A stretch of 64,000 bases of DNA from Patescibacteria group bacterium (GTDB taxonomy: Bacteria > Patescibacteriota > Minisyncoccia > Phycocordibacterales > UBA1550), in the NCBI GenBank assembly GCA_038062675.1, contig JBBTWP010000003.1:37934-101933 (forward strand), given 5' to 3'. Positions within the stretch are counted from its first letter, which is position 1. Each line of letters begins with the position of its first letter. Positions 2,623 to 27,845 of this stretch are shown here, in pieces. A program made the translations under genes and the position numbers. The notes below the pieces were generated by a model that saw nothing but the letters and a program-made list of their open reading frames with translations, had not been told where the DNA came from and made no database searches.

Positions 2623-4767
2623 CTACTTCCTTGCCGCAATAATCGTCGTTGCCACGTTTTGGGGAACAATGTCATAGTGGTCAAACTCCATGGTGGATGA
2701 TGCGCGGCCTTCCGTCATGGAACGAAGTGCGGTAACATATCCAAACATTTCAGAAAGTGGAACTTTTGCAGTAATAACTTTCATACCACCTCGCTCTCCC
2801 ATGCCTTCGATTTGTGCGCGCTTTGAAGAAAGGTTGCCGGCAACGTCGCCCATGAATTGCTCTGGCATAACTACTTCTACTTTCATGATGGGTTCAAGGA
2901 TAACGGGACCTGCTTTTTGTGCAGCTTCCTTGAATGCCATGGATGCGGCGATTTTGAAGGCGATTTCTGAGGAGTCGACTTCGTGGAACGAACCGTCGTA
3001 GAGCTCGGCTGAGATGTCTACCACCTTGTACCCAGCTTGAATACCGCGATCCATTGCTTCACGAAGACCTTTTTCAATAGGACTGATGTATTCCTGAGGA
3101 ATGACGCCACCTCTAATCGCATTCACGAATTCGAAGTGATCGCCATCACGCTTGGTGTTCTTTGGAAGATCTTCCTTGTCCACTGTCTTGTCGATTGGTC
3201 GCAGGCGGATCTTTACGTGACCGTACTGACCGCGTCCACCTGTTTGTTTAATATATTTATAATCAGACTCCGCTTCGCGCGTAATAGTCTCTTTGTAAGC
3301 AACCTGTGGTTTTCCGACATTTGCTTCTACATTAAATTCACGCTTCATGCGATCAACGAGAATTTCCAAGTGAAGCTCTCCCATGCCTGAAATGATGGTC
3401 TCCAGTGTTTCCTCGTCAGTTGAGATACGGAATGTTGGATCCTCGTCAGCAAGCTTGCGGAGCGCAAGGCCAATCTTTTCCTGATCTGCTTTTGTTTTTG
3501 GCTCAATACGAAGGGAAATAACTGGCTCTGGAAATTTAATCTGCTCGAGGATAATTGGTTTTTCTTCACTACAAAGTGTGTGTGAGGTTTTGGTGTTTTT
3601 GAGTCCAACCATGGCAGCAATTTCTCCCGCGTATACCTTTTTTACTTCCTCGCGCTGATCAGCCTGAAGGCGCACCATACGGCCTACACGTTCGCGGTCA
3701 CCGGTGGTTGCATTATATACATACGAACCCGCTTCGATAGTACCTGAGTATACACGGAAGAAGGTAAGCTGTCCCACGAATGGGTCTGCTTGAAGCTTAA
3801 ATGCAAGCGCCGCAAATGGCTCTGCGTCTGAAGGAGAGCGTGTGATAGTCTCGCCAGTATGAGGATCGAGTCCGCTTACCGCCGCAATATCGAGCGGTGA
3901 AGGACAGAAATCAACCACAGCATCGAGCACAAGCTGGACACCTTTGTTTTTGAGCGCCGAACCTGCATACACAGGAAAAATCTCGTTTTTGATCACCGCC
4001 TTGCGCATCGTCGCTTTCAAAACATCCATCGGGACTTCCTTCCCGTCGAGATAATCCGCCATGAGTTTTTCGTCATTCTCAACAATGCGCTCAATCAATT
4101 CTGAGCGATATTTTTTTGCATCAGCAAGATATTTCTCAGGAATTTCTTTTTCAATAACTTTGATACCCATATCGCCTTCAAAGAAAAAGGCTTTCATTTT
4201 GAGAAGGTCGATAACACCCTCGAACTCATCTTCGAGTCCGATAGGAATTTGCATACGAACTGCCTTCTTGTTCAAACGATCCAAAATAGATGCGTACGAA
4301 CGCTCGAATGAAGCGCCGGTACGATCAAGCTTGTTAATGAAACAAATGCGAGGAACCTGTGCTTCGTCGGCATAGCGCCAGTTGGTTTCAGACTGTGGCT
4401 CTACTCCGGCAACACCGTCAAACACCACCACAGCACCATCGAGCACACGAAGACTGCGCTTCACTTCAACCGTAAAGTCGATGTGCCCCGGTGTATCAAT
4501 AATATTAAAACGATACATGTTTTCCTTTGCTTTTTCAACATCGGTCTTGTTCCAAAAACAGGTGATCGCGGCGGCAGTAATCGTAATGCCACGCTCACGC
4601 TCCTGCTCCATCCAGTCGGTCACTGTTCCTCCGTCATGCACTTCACCAATCTTATGCGTCATGCCCGTATAAAACAAAATGCGCTCAGACGTTGTCGTCT
4701 TACCGGCATCAATATGCGCAATGATTCCAAAGTTTCTTACTTTTTGAAGGGGGTAGTCTCGTTCCAT
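2623..4767 (-). CDS. fusA: Elongation factor G
   Basis: '[24 protein letters not shown]...[13 protein letters not shown]' is the EF-G G-domain. 714 aa full length. Confidence 0.95.
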
Positions 4768-19937: not shown

Positions 19938-20779
19938 ACACTCCAACACCCATCATAAAAATTGATGCGCTCTCATCCAAATACCCCGATATTCGCATGT
20001 ATATTAAGGACGAGAGTGTAAACCCTTACGGAACAATTAAGGACCGTCGCAATGCACACATCGCAAAAGAGGCTCTTCGCCTTGGTGTCGACAAACTAGC
20101 AATGATCACTTCTGGGAACAACGGGTATAGTCTTTCAAGGCTTGCGAGTGAAACCAATATCAAAGTCACTTGCATTGTAGACAAGACGGTTAGCGAAGAT
20201 GTTCACAAGAAACTTTCTGAGGTTGCATATCAAGTGATTAAAATAAATCTTCAAGATAAAATTTTGCGTACTGAAGAAATTATTTCCTTTGCGCGCGATC
20301 GCGACGATGAGGTCATTTGGGATGTCACCAATGGGTATGAAGAATCGTACGGCATTGTGGTAAACGAAATTCTTGCGCAACTACCACATGTTGATTACAT
20401 TGTAGTCCCCTTGGGGAGCGGTGGGATCTTTGTGGGCATTGCAGAGCAACTTTCCAAATCTAATCACATTGCAAAAGTAATCGGCGTTGGACCCAAAGCA
20501 AACTATCGGAGCTTTGCTGATAAACTTTCGACACCATGGTCCCCATACACGAAAGCAATCGAAGGGTATGAGAAGCGCGGGCACACTGTTATTCGCCTAT
20601 CCGAATCAGAAATACAAAAAACTTATTTACATTGTCGCAACATCTGCAACTGCGAACCTTCGGCGTCGATTGTTTTTGCAGCACTTGAACATTTTAATTT
20701 CAAAAAAGAAGATACGGTTGTTTTTATAAACTCCGGCAATTCTGAGGCGACAAATTTTTTACATCGATCAATTTCCTAA
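19934..20779 (+). CDS. PLP-dependent fold-type II enzyme (threonine synthase / cysteine synthase superfamily)
   Basis: 'KDESVNPYGTIKDRRNAHI' matches the PALP lysine motif (K-x-E-x-x-N-P-x-G-S/T-x-K-D-R). Glycine-rich 'VVPLGSGG'. Start overlaps the TrmB stop (ATGA). Confidence 0.6.
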   Translation: MNTPTPIIKIDALSSKYPDIRMYIKDESVNPYGTIKDRRNAHIAKEALRLGVDKLAMITSGNNGYSLSRLASETNIKVTCIVDKTVSEDVHKKLSEVAYQVIKINLQDKILRTEEIISFARDRDDEVIWDVTNGYEESYGIVVNEILAQLPHVDYIVVPLGSGGIFVGIAEQLSKSNHIAKVIGVGPKANYRSFADKLSTPWSPYTKAIEGYEKRGHTVIRLSESEIQKTYLHCRNICNCEPSASIVFAALEHFNFKKEDTVVFINSGNSEATNFLHRSIS

Positions 20780-22329
20780 AACTCGTGCTCAGATATTTTT
20801 TTGTTTGGTGAAGTTGTGGTGCGGGGGAAATTTTTTACGACGATGTAGCCGAGGGCGACGTATGACAAAATGAGGAGTGTGAGCGGAAATGTTTTCAAGT
20901 GAAGTGAGCCGTACGGAACTTTTGCAAAAAGTTCGACGATGGAAATAATGTACGCAAGAATGATGTAAGAAATGTATCCGAGCATCGCACCCAAGAGCGG
21001 CACCCATGCGAAGCACGCAACAAGAAGTGCAGCGAGCATCGCAAGTGGGACAGCGGGTAAGACAATGAGGTTGGTGATGAGCCCAACCACCGACGCACTG
21101 CCCATGTGGTAGAGAAGAAGTGGCAGTACAAAAATTTGTGTGGCGACAGTGGCAAGAAAAATCTCGCGCATCATGCTTGGTGTCCGTGAGCGTGAAACAC
21201 CAAAAAAATATTTCTCGAGAATAGGGACCAACACAACAAGCGCGAGTGTAGCCACAAACGAGAGTTGAAATGAAACATCATGAAAAAGAATCATGGGGTT
21301 GTGAAGCACCATGAGTGTACCTGCGAGGACGAGTACACGAAGCGCACTACTCTCGCGACCAAGTGCGCGCGCAATGATGACGACGAGCACCATGATGGTC
21401 GCGCGCACCACCGTGGCCCCACCACCGACAAGCATAGCAAACATCACAATGCCGAACGCGCTCATCACAAGGCGAAGCGTAAACGAAAGCGACCCAGCGA
21501 CGCGCGCGAGCGCGCTCGCAACAATGGCGATGTTGTATCCCGAAAGCACGACAATGTGCACCACTCCCGTTTCACGAAATTTCTGTAACAGCTCTTCGCC
21601 GAGTGATTGTTTGGCACCAAGCAAGACTCCGCCCGCAAGCGACGCCTCAGGCTCGGGAATGACGCGGTTAATATTCTTGAGTAGCACATCTTTCAATGCA
21701 AACAATTTCTCATACACCATGTTTCCTTTATGTTGTGAAGCAACCTCAACTACTGGATAGAGCATCTGATAGAAGATATCGTCGCGTGCAAGATATGAAC
21801 GATAGTCGAACATGCGCGTCTCGGTTTCGCTTGTGAAATTTTTTGGCACCAACATCTTGCCCTGCACGCGCACAACATCACCATACTGAAGTCGCGGGTA
21901 CTCTGCCGTACGCACGAGCACGCGCACACGCTCGTCAAGGACATGGATCGACGGTTGTCCAATAGAACTGACCGATACAACTTCAAAGACAACGTTCGTG
22001 TAGGCGTCGCGAGCATCCACTTCGCGCACTACCAATCCCTCGAGCGTCACGGATTTTCCCACCAGCGAATCCAACACGTGCATGTTTCTCAACAGGCGCT
22101 CGTTGTTAAACTCCTGCCGAAAAACTCCGAGAGCACACGATATCAAGATGCATGAAACAAAGAAACGCTTTCGCGCCTCTCGACCAACGCCGTGCATCAC
22201 CAACAACATGCACGCAAGAAGAAGCAAGAAAAAAATGAACGCCGACCCAAAACGAAAGAGTGACTCGAGAGCCACCCCAACAACGAAACTTATTGTGAAA
22301 CCGTAAAAATAATTGTTCCCCATACTCAC
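20776..22329 (-). CDS. comEC: ComEC/Rec2-family DNA internalization channel protein (transmembrane competence domain, no MBL domain)
   Basis: 517 aa polytopic membrane protein with an N-terminal OB-fold-like region 'YGDVVRVQGKMLVPKNFTSETETRMFDYRSYLARDDIFYQM' characteristic of ComEC (DUF4131 plus competence domain). Confidence 0.65.
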   Translation of the reverse strand: MSMGNNYFYGFTISFVVGVALESLFRFGSAFIFFLLLLACMLLVMHGVGREARKRFFVSCILISCALGVFRQEFNNERLLRNMHVLDSLVGKSVTLEGLVVREVDARDAYTNVVFEVVSVSSIGQPSIHVLDERVRVLVRTAEYPRLQYGDVVRVQGKMLVPKNFTSETETRMFDYRSYLARDDIFYQMLYPVVEVASQHKGNMVYEKLFALKDVLLKNINRVIPEPEASLAGGVLLGAKQSLGEELLQKFRETGVVHIVVLSGYNIAIVASALARVAGSLSFTLRLVMSAFGIVMFAMLVGGGATVVRATIMVLVVIIARALGRESSALRVLVLAGTLMVLHNPMILFHDVSFQLSFVATLALVVLVPILEKYFFGVSRSRTPSMMREIFLATVATQIFVLPLLLYHMGSASVVGLITNLIVLPAVPLAMLAALLVACFAWVPLLGAMLGYISYIILAYIISIVELFAKVPYGSLHLKTFPLTLLILSYVALGYIVVKNFPRTTTSPNKKISEHEF

Positions 22330-22351: not shown

Positions 22352-23095
22352 CTATCGGACACCCCATGCGCTCATAATCGCTCGCTCGTCGTCCGCACTC
22401 GTCGACTTTTTGAACTTCGTTCCCGGCACTCCCTTCACCCGCTTCTCACACTCCGCCCACGTAGCATGCTTCATGAGTTTGCCACCGACGAGACTCAAGT
22501 ATGAATATGCCTTCACTCCGGATTTCGATTTTGATTTTGTTTTCTTTGCGGCAAGTTTTTTTGCGTCACCTTCGACTGGAGTGAGGTCAACTTCATACGT
22601 ACTCCGCGCTCCGTCAAAAAGCTGTGGGAACATTTTGTCCGCACACATCGTCGCAATCTCGTCCGCGCGTTCGTTTCCCGGAATGCCCGCGTGTCCCGGT
22701 GCATAGTTCCATGCGATTGTGCATCCACTCATTTTGAGATCAGCTACCGCGAGTACAAGTTCTTCCCACAAGTCGCGATTGATTACGTCTTCTTTTTTAC
22801 TATTTACCCATCCGTTTTTTTGCCACCCAAACACCCACTTCGTGATGCCATTCAAAACATAGCTCGAGTCTGCACGCACATCGATTGAAAATTCGCTCCC
22901 AAGGTCGCGCACAAATGAGAGTCCCGCGATCGCGGCGCGAAGTTCCATGCGATTGTTTGTCGTGCGCTCTTCACCACCGCCGAGCTCGACGACACGCTCA
23001 CGTGTTGCAACAATCGTTCCCCATCCACCCGGCCCCGGATTCCCGCGCGATGACCCATCCGTGTATATTAAAATTTCTGGTTTCTTCATCATCAC
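22352..23095 (-). CDS. rnhA: Ribonuclease HI with a C-terminal hybrid-binding-like extension
   Basis: 'ILIYTDGSSRGNPGPGGWG...TNNRMELRAAI...WVNSKKEDVINRDLWEEL...NERADEIA' is the RNase H catalytic core. The C-terminal 'KAYSYLSLVGGKLMKHATWAECEKRVKGVPGTKFKKSTSADDE' resembles the RNase H1 hybrid-binding (viroplasmin-like) domain. Confidence 0.75.
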   Translation of the reverse strand: MMMKKPEILIYTDGSSRGNPGPGGWGTIVATRERVVELGGGEERTTNNRMELRAAIAGLSFVRDLGSEFSIDVRADSSYVLNGITKWVFGWQKNGWVNSKKEDVINRDLWEELVLAVADLKMSGCTIAWNYAPGHAGIPGNERADEIATMCADKMFPQLFDGARSTYEVDLTPVEGDAKKLAAKKTKSKSKSGVKAYSYLSLVGGKLMKHATWAECEKRVKGVPGTKFKKSTSADDERAIMSAWGVR

Positions 23096-23098
23096 AGT

Positions 23099-24784
23099 TT
23101 AGCTTTTTTTCATCACGTTCACAATTCGAAGTCGAAGCTCGCGCTTCCCACGAAATGTGTTGAGGTCGAATGTTGCAACAAGGTCGACCTTGTCACCCGA
23201 GACCAACGCTTCATATTTTTTATCCGTCGCAAAAAATAAAATGGCGAGCACGCGAACACCACGTGAGTTTTCGAATGCGAGCTCGAGATGCGCGCGCTCT
23301 TTTCCAAAACGTCGCACGTCGGCAAGATGCACCCCCTCGAACAAAAATGTTGGCTTGGGATTTCCAATTCCGAACGGCGCAAACTGTTCGATGATTTTCC
23401 ATGTCGACCAATTCACGTCGTCGAACGAAAGTGTCGCGTCGATAGTCCACTCCGCTTTTTCTTTTTCAAAACGCACCTTCTGGTACGCACGTACAAGCTC
23501 GTCTTCCATCGTGTGCACACCATCTTGAAGAAGCGAAAAACCTCCCGCGAGTGCGTGACCTCCCACGTTCACAAAAAAACCTTCCGTCACACTCGTCATG
23601 AGTTCAACAAGATTCACCGTACCATCGGAACGACACGAACCTTTGATCGTTCCGTCTTCCGCGCGACCCCACACAAACACCGGACGCGCGTACGCTTCGA
23701 CCAAAGATGACGCAACGAGTCCCGCGAGTCCGGGTCGCCACTCTGGATTACCGATCACGATCACTCCGCGCAAATCTTCATTCGTGTTCCGATGCTCGAT
23801 GTGCTTGCGTGCCTCCTTCACCATACTCGCCACCAAACCTTTTCGTGTTTCGTTTAAGTGCGTGAGGTGGTCCGCAAATTCTTCTGCCTCGCGTTCGTCG
23901 GTTGATGCGAGCAGACGAAACGCGTCGATGGGATTTCCCATGCGGCTTGCGGCGTTGATGCGCGGACCGATCATGAACCCAACATCGTCCTCTACAATAT
24001 TCGCCTGTGGCATGTCCATCTTTGCGAGAAGTTTTTTGAGCCCGAGTCGTGGTGACTTGCGGAGCACTTTGAGACCAAAATACGCAATCGCACGATTTTC
24101 ATTTTTGAGTGGCACCATGTCTGCGATTGTTGAGAGACCCGCCATGTCGAGGAGCCATTTCTCCCAACCCACGGGGACACTCCACGCCTCGCGCCTTCGT
24201 GCAAGAAGCGCACACGAAAGTTTCCATGCTACCCCTGCCCCGCAGAGCATGTTGTCGGGATAGGGATCCGTCGCCTGTTTTGAATTGAGAATCGTGTATG
24301 CCCGTGGCACCACGTCTTGTGGCAAGTGGTGGTCGGTAATGATGACATCCATACCGAGTTCATTTGCACGTGCCACTTCATGTACGTCCGTGATACCACA
24401 ATCCACGGTAATCATGAGGGTCACCCCCTCCCCTGCGAGTTTTTCCACTGCCCCCACATTGAGCCCATACCCTTCGTTGTGCCGATGAGGAATGTAGTTT
24501 TGAAAATGTGCGTAGCTTATCTTTTTGAAAAAATCATGAAGCACCACGGAGCCCGGAATCCCATCGCAATCGTAATCGCCATAAATGACGATTTTTTCGT
24601 TCGCGTCCATCGCCTGCAAAATGCGCTCGACTGCCCGCTCCATATTAAGCATAAGAAATGGATCGTAGATATCGCGCTCATAACTTGGATTCAAAAACTT
24701 TTCCGCCGCCTCTTCCGTCAAAATCCCCCTGTTTTTGAGGAGCGTTTGCGCAAGGAGTGGATATTTCGCCAATTCAGGTGACAT
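23099..24784 (-). CDS. recJ: Single-stranded-DNA-specific exonuclease RecJ (DHH/DHHA1)
   Basis: 'IVIYGDYDCDGIPGSVVL' and 'ITDHHLP' are DHH motifs. Start placed at 'MSPELAKYPLL' (ATG 24784) rather than the extended ORF start at 24907. Confidence 0.8.
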   Translation of the reverse strand: MSPELAKYPLLAQTLLKNRGILTEEAAEKFLNPSYERDIYDPFLMLNMERAVERILQAMDANEKIVIYGDYDCDGIPGSVVLHDFFKKISYAHFQNYIPHRHNEGYGLNVGAVEKLAGEGVTLMITVDCGITDVHEVARANELGMDVIITDHHLPQDVVPRAYTILNSKQATDPYPDNMLCGAGVAWKLSCALLARRREAWSVPVGWEKWLLDMAGLSTIADMVPLKNENRAIAYFGLKVLRKSPRLGLKKLLAKMDMPQANIVEDDVGFMIGPRINAASRMGNPIDAFRLLASTDEREAEEFADHLTHLNETRKGLVASMVKEARKHIEHRNTNEDLRGVIVIGNPEWRPGLAGLVASSLVEAYARPVFVWGRAEDGTIKGSCRSDGTVNLVELMTSVTEGFFVNVGGHALAGGFSLLQDGVHTMEDELVRAYQKVRFEKEKAEWTIDATLSFDDVNWSTWKIIEQFAPFGIGNPKPTFLFEGVHLADVRRFGKERAHLELAFENSRGVRVLAILFFATDKKYEALVSGDKVDLVATFDLNTFRGKRELRLRIVNVMKKS

Positions 24785-24812
24785 AATGGGCATTCTACCA
24801 TATACTGTAAAG

Positions 24813-25631
24813 ATGACTGATTGTCTATTTTGCAAAATCATTGCAGGGAACATTCCCACCGAAAAAGTGTACGAGGATGCAGAGTGTTTTGCATTTCTTG
24901 ACATCAACCCCGTAAATATTGGTCATACACTTCTTGTCCCGAAAGCACACCATGCAAACCTCTATGAAACACCGGATGAAATCCTCGCTCACCTAGCACC
25001 CATCATCAAAAAACTTGCCATCGTGGTCAAAAAAGCCGTACTCGCCGACGGCATCAACATCGAAATGAACAACGACTCTGCGGCAAGCCAGCTCATTTTT
25101 CACACCCACATCCACATTATTCCTCGTTTTTTGAATGACGAGGCGCACTACTGGAAACACAAAGGAAAGTATCATGACGGGGAGATGGCAAGCATAGGGA
25201 AAAAGATGCAAGAAAATTTTAAAATTTTTGAGAATCCCCCATTGGACAGATTTGACACATGGAACATGGCCAAGAAAAAACTCCACGAAGAGACAGATGT
25301 TCCTGACAGATTCCCAAAGGAAGGCGAGGTGTGGATGAGCGTGCTCGGGAAAAATATTGGCTACGAACAAAATGGCGGAGGTGATAATTTCTCGAGACCT
25401 TTATTGATTATCAAAAAGTTTAACAATCACATGTTTTGGGCAATACCACTTTCTACCACACAAAAAAGTCTAGATTTTTATTACAACTTTATTGACCCTA
25501 ACCAGAATTCTGTTTCTGCAATCATCGCACAGCTAAAACTTGTGAGCCTAAAAAGGTTAAAAAGAAAACTTTACGACATGCCTCAAGAAAAACTAGAGGA
25601 CATAAAACGTAAAACGACAGAGCTCTTCTAA
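24813..25631 (+). CDS. HIT (histidine triad) domain fused to a C-terminal MazF/PemK-like domain
   Basis: N-terminus 'MTDCLFCKIIAGNIPTEKVYED...HTHIHIIPRF' is a HIT domain with the HxHxHxx triad. C-terminal ~110 aa 'PKEGEVWMSVLGKNIGYEQNGGGDNFSRPLLIIKKFNNHMFWAIPLSTTQKS...' aligns to the MazF/PemK pattern 'GxhhxVxhxPxxGxEQxGxRPxhVhSxxxxNxxxxxhhhhPhTS'. Single uninterrupted frame. Confidence 0.55.
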   Translation: MTDCLFCKIIAGNIPTEKVYEDAECFAFLDINPVNIGHTLLVPKAHHANLYETPDEILAHLAPIIKKLAIVVKKAVLADGINIEMNNDSAASQLIFHTHIHIIPRFLNDEAHYWKHKGKYHDGEMASIGKKMQENFKIFENPPLDRFDTWNMAKKKLHEETDVPDRFPKEGEVWMSVLGKNIGYEQNGGGDNFSRPLLIIKKFNNHMFWAIPLSTTQKSLDFYYNFIDPNQNSVSAIIAQLKLVSLKRLKRKLYDMPQEKLEDIKRKTTELF

Positions 25632-25784
25632 AACTCGAAACCCCGCCAATTGGCGGGGTTTCTCGGAGCCTTACGGCACTTTATAATTTCATCTTATACC
25701 CAACTGTTGAGTAAGTCAAGTTTTTCTGCAATATGTAATACCAAAGCGAAAAGTGCACCCCTTCCATTATTCTGCCCCACCATC

Positions 25785-27783: not shown

Positions 27784-27845
27784 ACGACCCATGGGGTGAG
27801 AAAATGCGCGGGCATGCCCGCGCATTTTCTCACCCCATGGGTCGT
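27784..27845. terminator. 62-bp perfect palindrome (bidirectional terminator / cruciform candidate)
   Basis: 'acgacccatggggtgagaaaatgcgcgggcatg|catgcccgcgcattttctcaccccatgggtcgt' has no loop and is centred on 'GCATGC'. Lies between the pilus cluster 3' end and the tpiA start. Confidence 0.55.

Follow-up and report, generated by a model that had tools for sequence, protein, structure and literature searches.

A 64-kb stretch of Patescibacteria DNA from contig JBBTWP010000003.1, referred to below as the window and numbered from its first letter, carries between recJ and pgk a gene in which a HIT/HINT nucleotide hydrolase domain is fused in frame to a domain of the MazF endoribonuclease family. 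We propose that the second half of this gene came from a self-contained accessory module of ~0.5 kb, composed of a MazF-like protein of ~129 amino acids (aa) and a convergent, structured RNA of ~55 nt, and that this RNA, rather than the HIT domain, is the partner of the MazF-like protein and probably acts as its antitoxin. Considered as a whole, this is the reading we favor, with moderate confidence. Its parts are of unequal strength: the anatomy and origin of the fusion are very probably as described here, and it seems equally probable from its sequence features that the small RNA is a real, transcribed partner, while a role for the RNA as an antitoxin, by whatever mechanism, is only marginally favored. 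All of the evidence is comparative. The pair behaves as an accessory element, of which the HIT-MazF fusion itself is a minor, lineage-specific variant.

Anatomy and origin of the HIT-MazF fusion

The original prediction, made from the DNA sequence, described a single open reading frame (ORF) joining a HIT domain to a MazF/PemK-like domain. The ORF list and its translation bore this out, as one uninterrupted frame of 272 codons runs from the ATG at 24813 to the stop codon at 25629-25631. The prediction's numbering (298 aa) counts from an upstream TTG at 24735 and is offset by +26; homologues begin at the ATG ('M..C.FCKI'). The features of the locus are as follows.

24813..25631, plus strand: HIT-MazF fusion ORF, 272 aa plus stop codon, identical to protein P0001
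24813..25142, plus strand: HIT/HINT domain (residues 1-110) with an N-terminal CxxC, assigned by PF01230 and Foldseek
25143..25238, plus strand: C-terminal tail of the HIT part (helix, residues 124-136) and a short variable junction, matching the end of stand-alone 150-aa HIT proteins
25239..25628, plus strand: MazF-like module (residues 143-272), with an N-terminal helix containing FDxWNxxKK, the MazF barrel (169-269) and a C-terminal helix
24778..24806, plus strand: promoter-like site of the fusion gene, GTGACA-17-TATACT, a consensus match only, ending 6 nt before the ATG
23099-24796, minus strand: recJ, divergent, upstream of the fusion gene

P0001 lies on a 385-kb contig under the NCBI name 'HIT domain-containing protein [Patescibacteria group bacterium]', a name that hides both the toxin-like RNase domain and the unannotated RNA gene described below.

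The HIT assignment was upheld by a Pfam match to PF01230 at residues 12-106 (E=7.9e-24), by the motif HTHIHIIPRF (residues 97-106, 25101-25130; HTHIHII, residues 97-103) and by the fold. The histidine triad H97-x-H99-x-H101 lies at 25101-25115, and the N-terminal half of the predicted structure superposed in Foldseek on the solved HIT proteins 3lb5 and 3o0m with template modeling (TM) scores of ~0.9, so that the hidden Markov model match, the HxHxHxx motif and the HIT fold expected of the superfamily were all found. Within NCBIfam the N-terminal half came closest to HinT, but the cut-offs for a HinT equivalog were missed by both models consulted (NCBIfam NF045834, 96.8 vs 130 bits; PRK10687, 41.5 vs 206 bits). 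Judged by these matches, the N-terminal half is a HIT family member of the HINT type with no named equivalog.

The MazF/PemK assignment also stood. PF02452 (PemK_toxin) matched residues 169-269 of the whole protein in Pfam, the C-terminal half alone scored 27.0 bits, and relatives in the family scored 24-37 bits. In hhalign alignments Arg195 (25395-25397) fell opposite R29 of Escherichia coli MazF and R25 of Bacillus subtilis MazF, Ser214/Thr215 (25452-25457) fell opposite E. coli T52/T53, and the family motifs SRP and LSTT were paired with HRP/VRP and CTTQ, respectively. Across the aligned MazF-like family these putative catalytic positions, Arg and Ser/Thr, hardly vary. Folds were compared because a phmmer search of the C-terminal half against PDB sequences gave nothing meaningful and a search with the family profile gave only weak MazF matches. 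When the C-terminal module was modeled by itself (mean predicted local distance difference test score, pLDDT, 76.8), its top Foldseek matches were the MazF structures 2mf2, 1ne8, 4mdx and 5cr2, with a probability of 1.0 and TM scores by target of 0.57-0.75; the MazF structures matched derive from Staphylococcus aureus, B. subtilis, Mycobacterium tuberculosis and E. coli.

An AlphaFold2 model of the entire fusion, built from 67 sequences, had a mean pLDDT of 88.3, and most 10-residue blocks of both domains exceeded 90. The predicted TM score (pTM) of this model was only 0.58 despite both domains being confidently modeled, and thus no fixed orientation of the two domains and no confident interface between them is predicted. 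HIT and MazF are each homodimeric folds, and on this general ground a dimer of the fusion is plausible geometrically. Both halves look functional.

The HIT plus PemK architecture is rare, being represented by only six clusters at 90% identity among 5.8 billion proteins, and we found no description of a HIT-MazF fusion in the papers searched, in agreement with the original suggestion that this is not a described family. Besides P0001, five proteins (P0002-P0006; 272-289 aa, 64-69% identical) have this architecture. Since these diverged relatives come from independent assemblies, an assembly frameshift, which the original prediction had recommended checking for, is excluded. Two of the fusion relatives could be placed on contigs (L008 and L009) and both share the divergent recJ neighbor. 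Among the six fusions identity is 64-79% over the HIT core, 73-88% over the MazF core and lowest, at 18-70%, in the junction. A 141-aa protein that is 99% identical (P0121) was considered as a split version of the gene and rejected, as its gene, on the near-identical contig L017 from a sample labeled 'Hain_H41', is cut by a contig end.

Synteny suggests how the fusion arose. The gene order in the window is ComEC (20776-22329), RNase H (22352-23095), recJ, HIT-MazF, pgk and tpiA, with pgk convergent to the fusion gene. A related contig, L011, has at the same site ComEC, RNase H and recJ, then a stand-alone HIT gene of 150 aa, then TusA, pgk and tpiA, and lacks the MazF module; on three shorter contigs encoding the same HIT protein (L012-L014), the gene adjoins the same divergent upstream gene, and L012 shares with L011 the order recJ, 150-aa HIT, pgk-tpiA without MazF. 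The stand-alone HIT gene at the syntenic site in L011 indicates that HIT is resident there and that the MazF part was added to it. We therefore picture a resident housekeeping HIT/HINT hydrolase gene between recJ and pgk in this Patescibacteria group, directly behind which the module would have landed, losing its own promoter and start codon in a lineage-specific in-frame fusion. The MazF moiety would now extend HIT at its C terminus and depend on the HIT promoter (candidate, 24778-24806) for its expression. The small-RNA gene and its promoter sequence are intact.

Only ~16-25 bp separate the divergent start codons of recJ (24796 or 24787) and of the fusion gene (24813). The promoter-like hexamers of the two genes (24778-24813 and 24783-24811) fall within the coding region of the respective neighbor and end ~6 nt before the ATG, a placement that suggests leaderless mRNAs; the promoter-like site of the fusion gene would imply a leaderless or nearly leaderless transcript.

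According to the original prediction, the attached HIT domain might regulate the MazF domain from within or stand in for an antitoxin. Autoinhibition dependent on nucleotides would be one way of doing so, as in the fused toxin-antitoxin proteins EzeT and CapRelSJ46, in which a covalently attached domain regulates the toxin. As had been claimed, no MazE-like ORF adjoins the fusion gene in the window and the upstream gene is the divergent recJ, and the lack of any protein antitoxin gene nearby would fit such a role for HIT, as would the persistence of the fusion through 31-36% amino-acid divergence with both halves conserved, and the fusion of the module to a second nucleotide-hydrolase family, NUDIX. 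The wider family speaks against it. Over 95% of family members are stand-alone and without a HIT neighbor, the usual form being a protein of ~129 aa that starts M..FDxWNxxKK. Where the module is fused elsewhere, the partners include, besides NUDIX, ribulose-phosphate epimerase (RPE), RpiB, GNAT, a DnaQ-like exonuclease, a YdjC-like domain, HNH and unknown domains. With fusions so rare and heterogeneous, insertion of the module behind HIT without functional coupling of the two domains is the simplest reading. In addition, HIT occupies the syntenic site without MazF in a relative, the model has no confident interdomain packing, and the fusions retain the small-RNA gene at full score. Regulation by HIT is thus unsupported and we consider it very improbable; the small-RNA gene, which the original prediction overlooked, is a better candidate for the missing partner.

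A conserved, predicted small RNA convergent with the MazF-like gene

ORFs in 80 loci were clustered and an antisense pseudo-ORF 'cluster' appeared just past the stop codon in 42 of them, which pointed to conserved DNA downstream of the stop. The same element of ~95 nt was present downstream in essentially all loci, including the window and the other HIT fusions, and lies 3-6 nt past the stop codon in most. In the window the predicted features are as follows.

25626-25719, minus strand: whole small-RNA gene (promoter, two hairpins, terminator), unannotated
25630..25684, minus strand: predicted ~55-nt small RNA, convergent to the fusion ORF, its 3' end overlapping the ORF stop codon
25691..25719, minus strand: predicted σ70-type promoter of the small RNA, -35 TTGACT, 17-nt spacer, -10 TAAGAT

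Read 5' to 3' on the minus strand, the window RNA would consist of AUAAAG, hairpin A (25668-25677, GUAA loop), UCCGAG, hairpin B (25637-25662) and CGAG-UUUU. Its folding z-score was -5.97. A covariance model of the element (R1) matched 25626-25690 on the minus strand with 84.1 bits (E=4.8e-17, the E-values from this model being rough), the sole strong match in the 64 kb. Rfam 15 offered no family beyond terminator-like matches below threshold (E<=10), the best being rnk_pseudo with 30.4 bits against a gathering score of 55. Tandem Repeats Finder detected no tandem-repeat array, the RNA being single-copy and non-repetitive.

Across the family the minus-strand promoter TTGAC[AT]-N-(TG)nTATACT was found at the same distance in 82 of 83 unique elements, and its -10 is often preceded by TG. 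A first-match scan of the 82 elements gave a sequence-variable spacer of 16 nt in 52, 17 nt in 10, and 15-19 nt in the rest. The RNA would begin ~7 nt past the -10 with 5'-(U)ACAAAG and continue through hairpin A, UC-CGAG, hairpin B and CGA(G/U)-UUUU-3', ending at the stop codon of the toxin-like gene.

The hairpins covary. RNAalifold returned 13 pairs, with compensatory changes in nine of these. Of the cells of the RNA alignment, 99.1% were paired and 55 carried double changes, compared with 4.4 in shuffles (none of 500 reached 55), and this signal collapsed once the pairing partners were slid. On the minus strand the loops are GNRA or UUCG tetraloops that interchange, while the loops of the plus strand would be unremarkable, and one-sided changes leading to G·U numbered 16 on the minus strand and four on the plus strand. 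Based on the strand of the promoter, the interchange of tetraloops and the G·U bias, the RNA was assigned to the minus strand. It is also under constraint of its own, as its sequence is kept, with 14 invariant columns in the alignment, while synonymous change in the ORF has reached saturation (all codons are in use for each conserved Gly, Pro, Leu, Ser or Arg).

The linkage between gene and RNA is strict. R1 had exactly one match, on the minus strand directly past the gene, in 79 of 80 loci from GTDB species, the 80th locus being cut by a contig end. The three HIT-fusion loci scored highest of all (83-86 bits). In 542 kb of flanking sequence there was one further match, which lies beside a second MazF-like gene in locus L062. 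This paralogue (3448-3840, minus strand; 31% identical) has its own diverged copy of the RNA (3267-3331, minus strand; 47 bits), which is not convergent with the gene; it is downstream and co-directional, past the gene's own terminator. The two protein genes of this locus are divergent neighbors.

We considered two ways in which such an RNA could restrain the protein. In the first, it would be purely cis-antisense, pairing with the 3' end of the mRNA and leading to its decay or blocking its expression, as with the type I-like pairs par RNAI/RNAII and bsrG/SR4. In nearly all loci gene and RNA converge and have a hairpin at the stop codon in common, and this tells against protein binding to the extent that the overlap itself could matter. 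Furthermore, hairpin B has no good U-tract on the plus strand, such that the mRNA may read through and be fully complementary to the RNA. Under pure pairing, however, primary sequence would be unconstrained, yet single-stranded segments are invariant across saturated lineages and stable tetraloops and stem covariation are maintained. Known type I toxins, moreover, are small membrane peptides, not RNases. An exclusively antisense mechanism thus seems unlikely, though not negligibly so.

In the second, which we prefer, the MazF moiety would be controlled in the fusion, as in other family members, by the RNA acting as a protein-binding antitoxin in a manner like that of type III systems. The invariant single-stranded segments 5'-(U)AYAMAG and CYGAG would then serve as a pseudo-substrate or docking site, and the cis-antisense overlap with the mRNA 3' end may contribute. 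MazF enzymes recognize short ACA-type motifs. Protein binding is favored because cis-antisense pairing would not conserve single strands, because AYAMAG is ACA-like, and because the RNA of the L062 paralogue is not antisense; its co-directional arrangement argues for a partnership between protein and RNA over mere antisense overlap. From the strict co-occurrence of gene and RNA and the constraint on the RNA sequence, we infer that the RNA binds and inhibits the protein.

Other candidate targets of the RNA were tried and set aside. The sequence 'TTTCTCGAGA' within the FSRP codons was rejected as a conserved RNA target, as these codons vary freely. Pairing of the small RNA in trans with the 5' end of the toxin mRNA was rejected because the 5' window never gave the best duplex. 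An apparent pairing peak over the EGEVWM codons was scattered G-rich pairing, in which the wobble positions vary freely.

Distribution of the module and competing explanations

We found 538 close relatives of the C-terminal module, and most of the 80 loci from GTDB species had ORFs of 129-135 aa. A profile search of 1.84 billion representatives returned 2,188 clusters (50% identity) at E<=1e-3 and 1,400 at E<=1e-10, most of them of ~130 aa and with the N-terminal helix also covered. The module protein would be a MazF-family endoribonuclease-like protein with an extra N-terminal helix, often preceded by an extended -10 promoter of its own: in a scan of stand-alone genes, 28 of 67 had TGnTAnnnT 3-11 nt before the ATG. 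In the second part of the module, promoter, two hairpins and terminator of the convergent RNA would abut the stop codon of the protein gene. Nearly all GTDB species loci are labeled Patescibacteria (Nomura-, Vogel-, Kaiser-, Uhr-, Wolfe-, Zambryski- and Gracilibacteria among others), the taxon labels of metagenome-assembled genomes being taken as deposited. Genomes labeled Saprospiraceae, Gammaproteobacteria and Ignavibacteriaceae (L049, L077 and L082) also carry the module, which could reflect horizontal transfer or bin contamination.

Genomic contexts differ between loci. When all ORFs within 1.5 kb were clustered for the 80 loci, there was no conserved protein neighbor, and no MazE/PemI-type protein antitoxin was present in the ~160 loci examined. 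Two small ORFs downstream of the fusion genes in L008 and L009 were considered as antitoxins and rejected; they had no antitoxin-like Pfam match, are absent from the window, and look like membrane or unknown proteins. Genes for large serine recombinases lie within ~2 kb of the module in L001 (544-2130), L018 (579-2231) and L024 (1734-3299), NYN/LabA-type RNase-like proteins ('IDG.NL' motif, judged by eye) lie near it in five loci, and L032, L019, L026, L062, L090 and L093 were also listed for neighbors of one or the other kind. These neighbors hint at carriage by integrative elements and at possible RNase partners.

The generality of the RNA was examined in a distant subfamily with an 'EREIWWC' motif, whose members are 33-52% identical to the reference member P0264 in alignments A4 and A5. 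For this subfamily 80 metagenome loci were fetched with the narrower A5, A4 being too diverse to seed the metagenome scan. The predicted design was TTGAC-N17-TATACT, UACAAAUGG, hairpin A, AACCGAG, hairpin B (GCAA or GAAA loop) and CGUUYGUUUU, adjoining the stop codon on the opposite strand. R1, which was built from the close family only, gave a full-length minus-strand match at the expected position in 30 of the 80 loci with a cut-off of E<=0.01; relaxing the cut-off to E<=5 raised the number to roughly 65. Covariation was far above controls in alignment A6, which is model-based, having replaced untidy hand trimming, and is fitted to R1 and so biased towards the R1 structure.

Many of the distant proteins end in short tails (..IETPP, ..KSKPRTGRGFS or ..NETPPFRRGISE). 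In P0043, P0047, P0061, P0073, P0278, P0359 and others the stop codon is lost and the tails resemble 'KSKPRTGRGFS.P' or 'ETPP'; the P0061 ORF runs past the tail into a downstream ribulose-phosphate epimerase domain. Such tails appear to be the RNA gene translated after loss of the stop codon.

Relatives also occur in phages. Searches of PHROGs matched a 'MazF-like growth inhibitor' family (PHROG 9567), whose relatives occur in prophages as 'morons', and in Campylobacter CJIE4 prophages a homologue lies between the terminase and portal genes. In one of these (L016, Campylobacter phage CJIE4-3, KF751795.1) no annotated antitoxin adjoins the MazF-like gene, and at 2917-3077 there is a convergent TGATATAAT promoter with a CCCCGC/GCGGGG hairpin touching the stop codon, an arrangement reminiscent of the Patescibacteria element that was noticed by eye only. 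The exact RNA pattern had no matches in IMG/VR viral contigs.

These distributions bear on whether the pair is a toxin-antitoxin system at all. Protein and RNA could instead relate as enzyme and substrate or assemble into a ribonucleoprotein, in either case serving a non-toxic purpose, for instance in RNA processing, and the HIT fusion would then be a bifunctional enzyme. Consistent with this, fusion to a housekeeping gene under that gene's promoter is tolerated, the protein is very strongly conserved (30 invariant residues), and no PADLOC defence-system model matches the MazF part; a PADLOC match of HIT to ThsC merely reflects the HIT family. However, the module is spread patchily (107 confirmed matches in 185,579 species genomes), its contexts vary, with some copies beside serine recombinases, relatives occur as prophage morons, and the GC content of the module in the window (38.8%) is below that of the flanking genes (43-51%). 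Patchiness, contexts, prophage relatives and low GC are traits of an accessory selfish module and not of a housekeeping gene. We accordingly judge a non-toxic role to be improbable, and take the protein to be presumptively a toxic RNase that would be neutralized by the RNA.

Several observations weigh against our proposal. The PF02452 match of the fusion protein is barely over threshold (24.9 bits vs a gathering score of 23.1), and the weak MazF matches of the family profile in the PDB had E-values of only ~0.1-0.3. That the RNA is a transcript, and where its ends lie, we infer from promoter and terminator features, and insertion followed by fusion is preferred by parsimony over an ancestral fusion that was later lost. 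Finally, the toxin half may be decaying in the fusion lineage. Residue 216 of the window protein (25458-25460), which adjoins the putative catalytic Ser/Thr, is Thr, shared with the near-identical P0121, whereas Lys is found in at least 90% of the aligned family (STTQK vs STKQK); the substitution might attenuate the MazF half. In the fusion relative L015 a single in-frame TAA at 535-540, in the linker helix between the halves, splits the ORF into a HIT ORF (159 aa) and a truncated PemK ORF, which could represent recent inactivation, reversion to two genes, or sequencing error.

Taken to its end, this evidence would make the fusion a neutral accident en route to decay, with the MazF half inactive and only HIT of consequence here. 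Set against the altered STTQK motif and the L015 stop are the better conservation of the MazF half than of HIT among the six fusions, the intact catalytic Arg and Ser/Thr positions, and the intact RNA gene and promoter. We regard decay as a distinctly unlikely account of the window locus, and retain the proposal of a fused module still under the control of its RNA.

One further feature of the window is a perfect palindrome of 62 bp at 27784-27845, between tpiA and the next gene, which has two 31-nt arms and no spacer, so that the ORFs on its two strands mirror each other. It may represent a terminator that works in both directions, a site of recombination or an artefact of the assembly.

Beyond this locus, we suggest tentatively that the module represents an undescribed, widespread class in which a MazF-family endoribonuclease without a protein antitoxin is neutralized by a bound, convergent, non-repetitive RNA of ~55 nt. 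The class would comprise ~1,400 clusters at 50% identity, mostly from Patescibacteria and groundwater metagenomes, possibly with relatives in Campylobacter prophages. A search for literature on MazF together with Patescibacteria or the candidate phyla radiation, on pemK RNA or on RNA antitoxins found no description, within a library that is incomplete. If true, a large MazF subfamily with a structured small RNA in place of a protein antitoxin would extend RNA-based toxin control to the MazF fold, and neutralization by the RNA would be a new RNA-antitoxin architecture for the archetypal type II toxin fold. The module would offer a compact, experimentally tractable protein-RNA pair. Little is known of defence and addiction systems in its Patescibacteria hosts, which are ultra-small and have reduced genomes. 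The varied fusions (HIT, NUDIX, RpiB, RPE, GNAT and others) would portray a selfish module welded onto housekeeping genes in dense genomes, and they caution that not every 'Rosetta-stone' fusion is a functional link. More speculatively, chemistry at the RNA 5' end might lie behind the recurrent fusions to 5'-end and nucleotide hydrolases (HIT, NUDIX).

Comparison with known systems

The HIT half resembles HIT/HINT proteins (PF01230; HinT-type purine nucleoside phosphoramidases) in its HxHxHxx triad, CxxC, fold and syntenic position. It differs from stand-alone members in its 130-residue MazF-like C-terminal extension and in scoring below the HinT equivalog cut-off. EzeT and CapRel carry a dedicated antitoxin domain, whereas the HIT attached here is a resident housekeeping enzyme.

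The MazF-like protein resembles the MazF/PemK/Kid toxins of type II systems (PF02452) in its Pfam match, its SH3-like barrel with C-terminal helix, and its catalytic positions; structures of such toxins include those of B. subtilis MazF/YdcE (1ne8 and 4mdx), S. aureus MazF (4mzp) and E. coli MazF (5cr2). In contrast to these toxins, it has no adjacent MazE/PemI, AbrB or ribbon-helix-helix antitoxin in the loci examined and is strictly linked to a convergent small-RNA gene. Its β1-β2 loop carries an insertion of 5 residues and its N-terminal part an additional conserved helix (FDxWNxxKK), and in many of the stand-alone genes a promoter immediately precedes the ATG. For MazF-mx, the solitary MazF of Myxococcus xanthus, control by a transcription factor and not by RNA is reported. 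This protein sets a precedent for a MazF without an adjacent MazE (PMC2701414).

With type III systems (ToxIN, CptIN, TenpIN, AbiQ/antiQ) the module shares a Kid/MazF-like endoribonuclease fold, CptN (4rmo) being among its Foldseek matches, and a proposed partner that is RNA, not protein. Unlike the module protein, ToxN-type toxins are not known to be members of PF02452 at the sequence level. Type III antitoxins are tandem repeat arrays that lie upstream, are co-transcribed with the toxin and are cut by it, whereas the RNA described here occurs as a single copy downstream of the gene, runs convergently to it, and has a predicted promoter and terminator to itself.

With type I systems (Enterococcus faecalis par RNAI/RNAII; B. 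subtilis bsrG/SR4 and txpA/RatA) the module shares a convergent small RNA and a common terminator or 3' region. Type I toxins, however, are small hydrophobic peptides, whereas the candidate here is a soluble 129-aa protein of the MazF fold, and no sequence conservation over phylum-level distances is known for type I RNAs. Of these systems, the MazF-like/small-RNA module would work most like type III and looks most like a type I locus.

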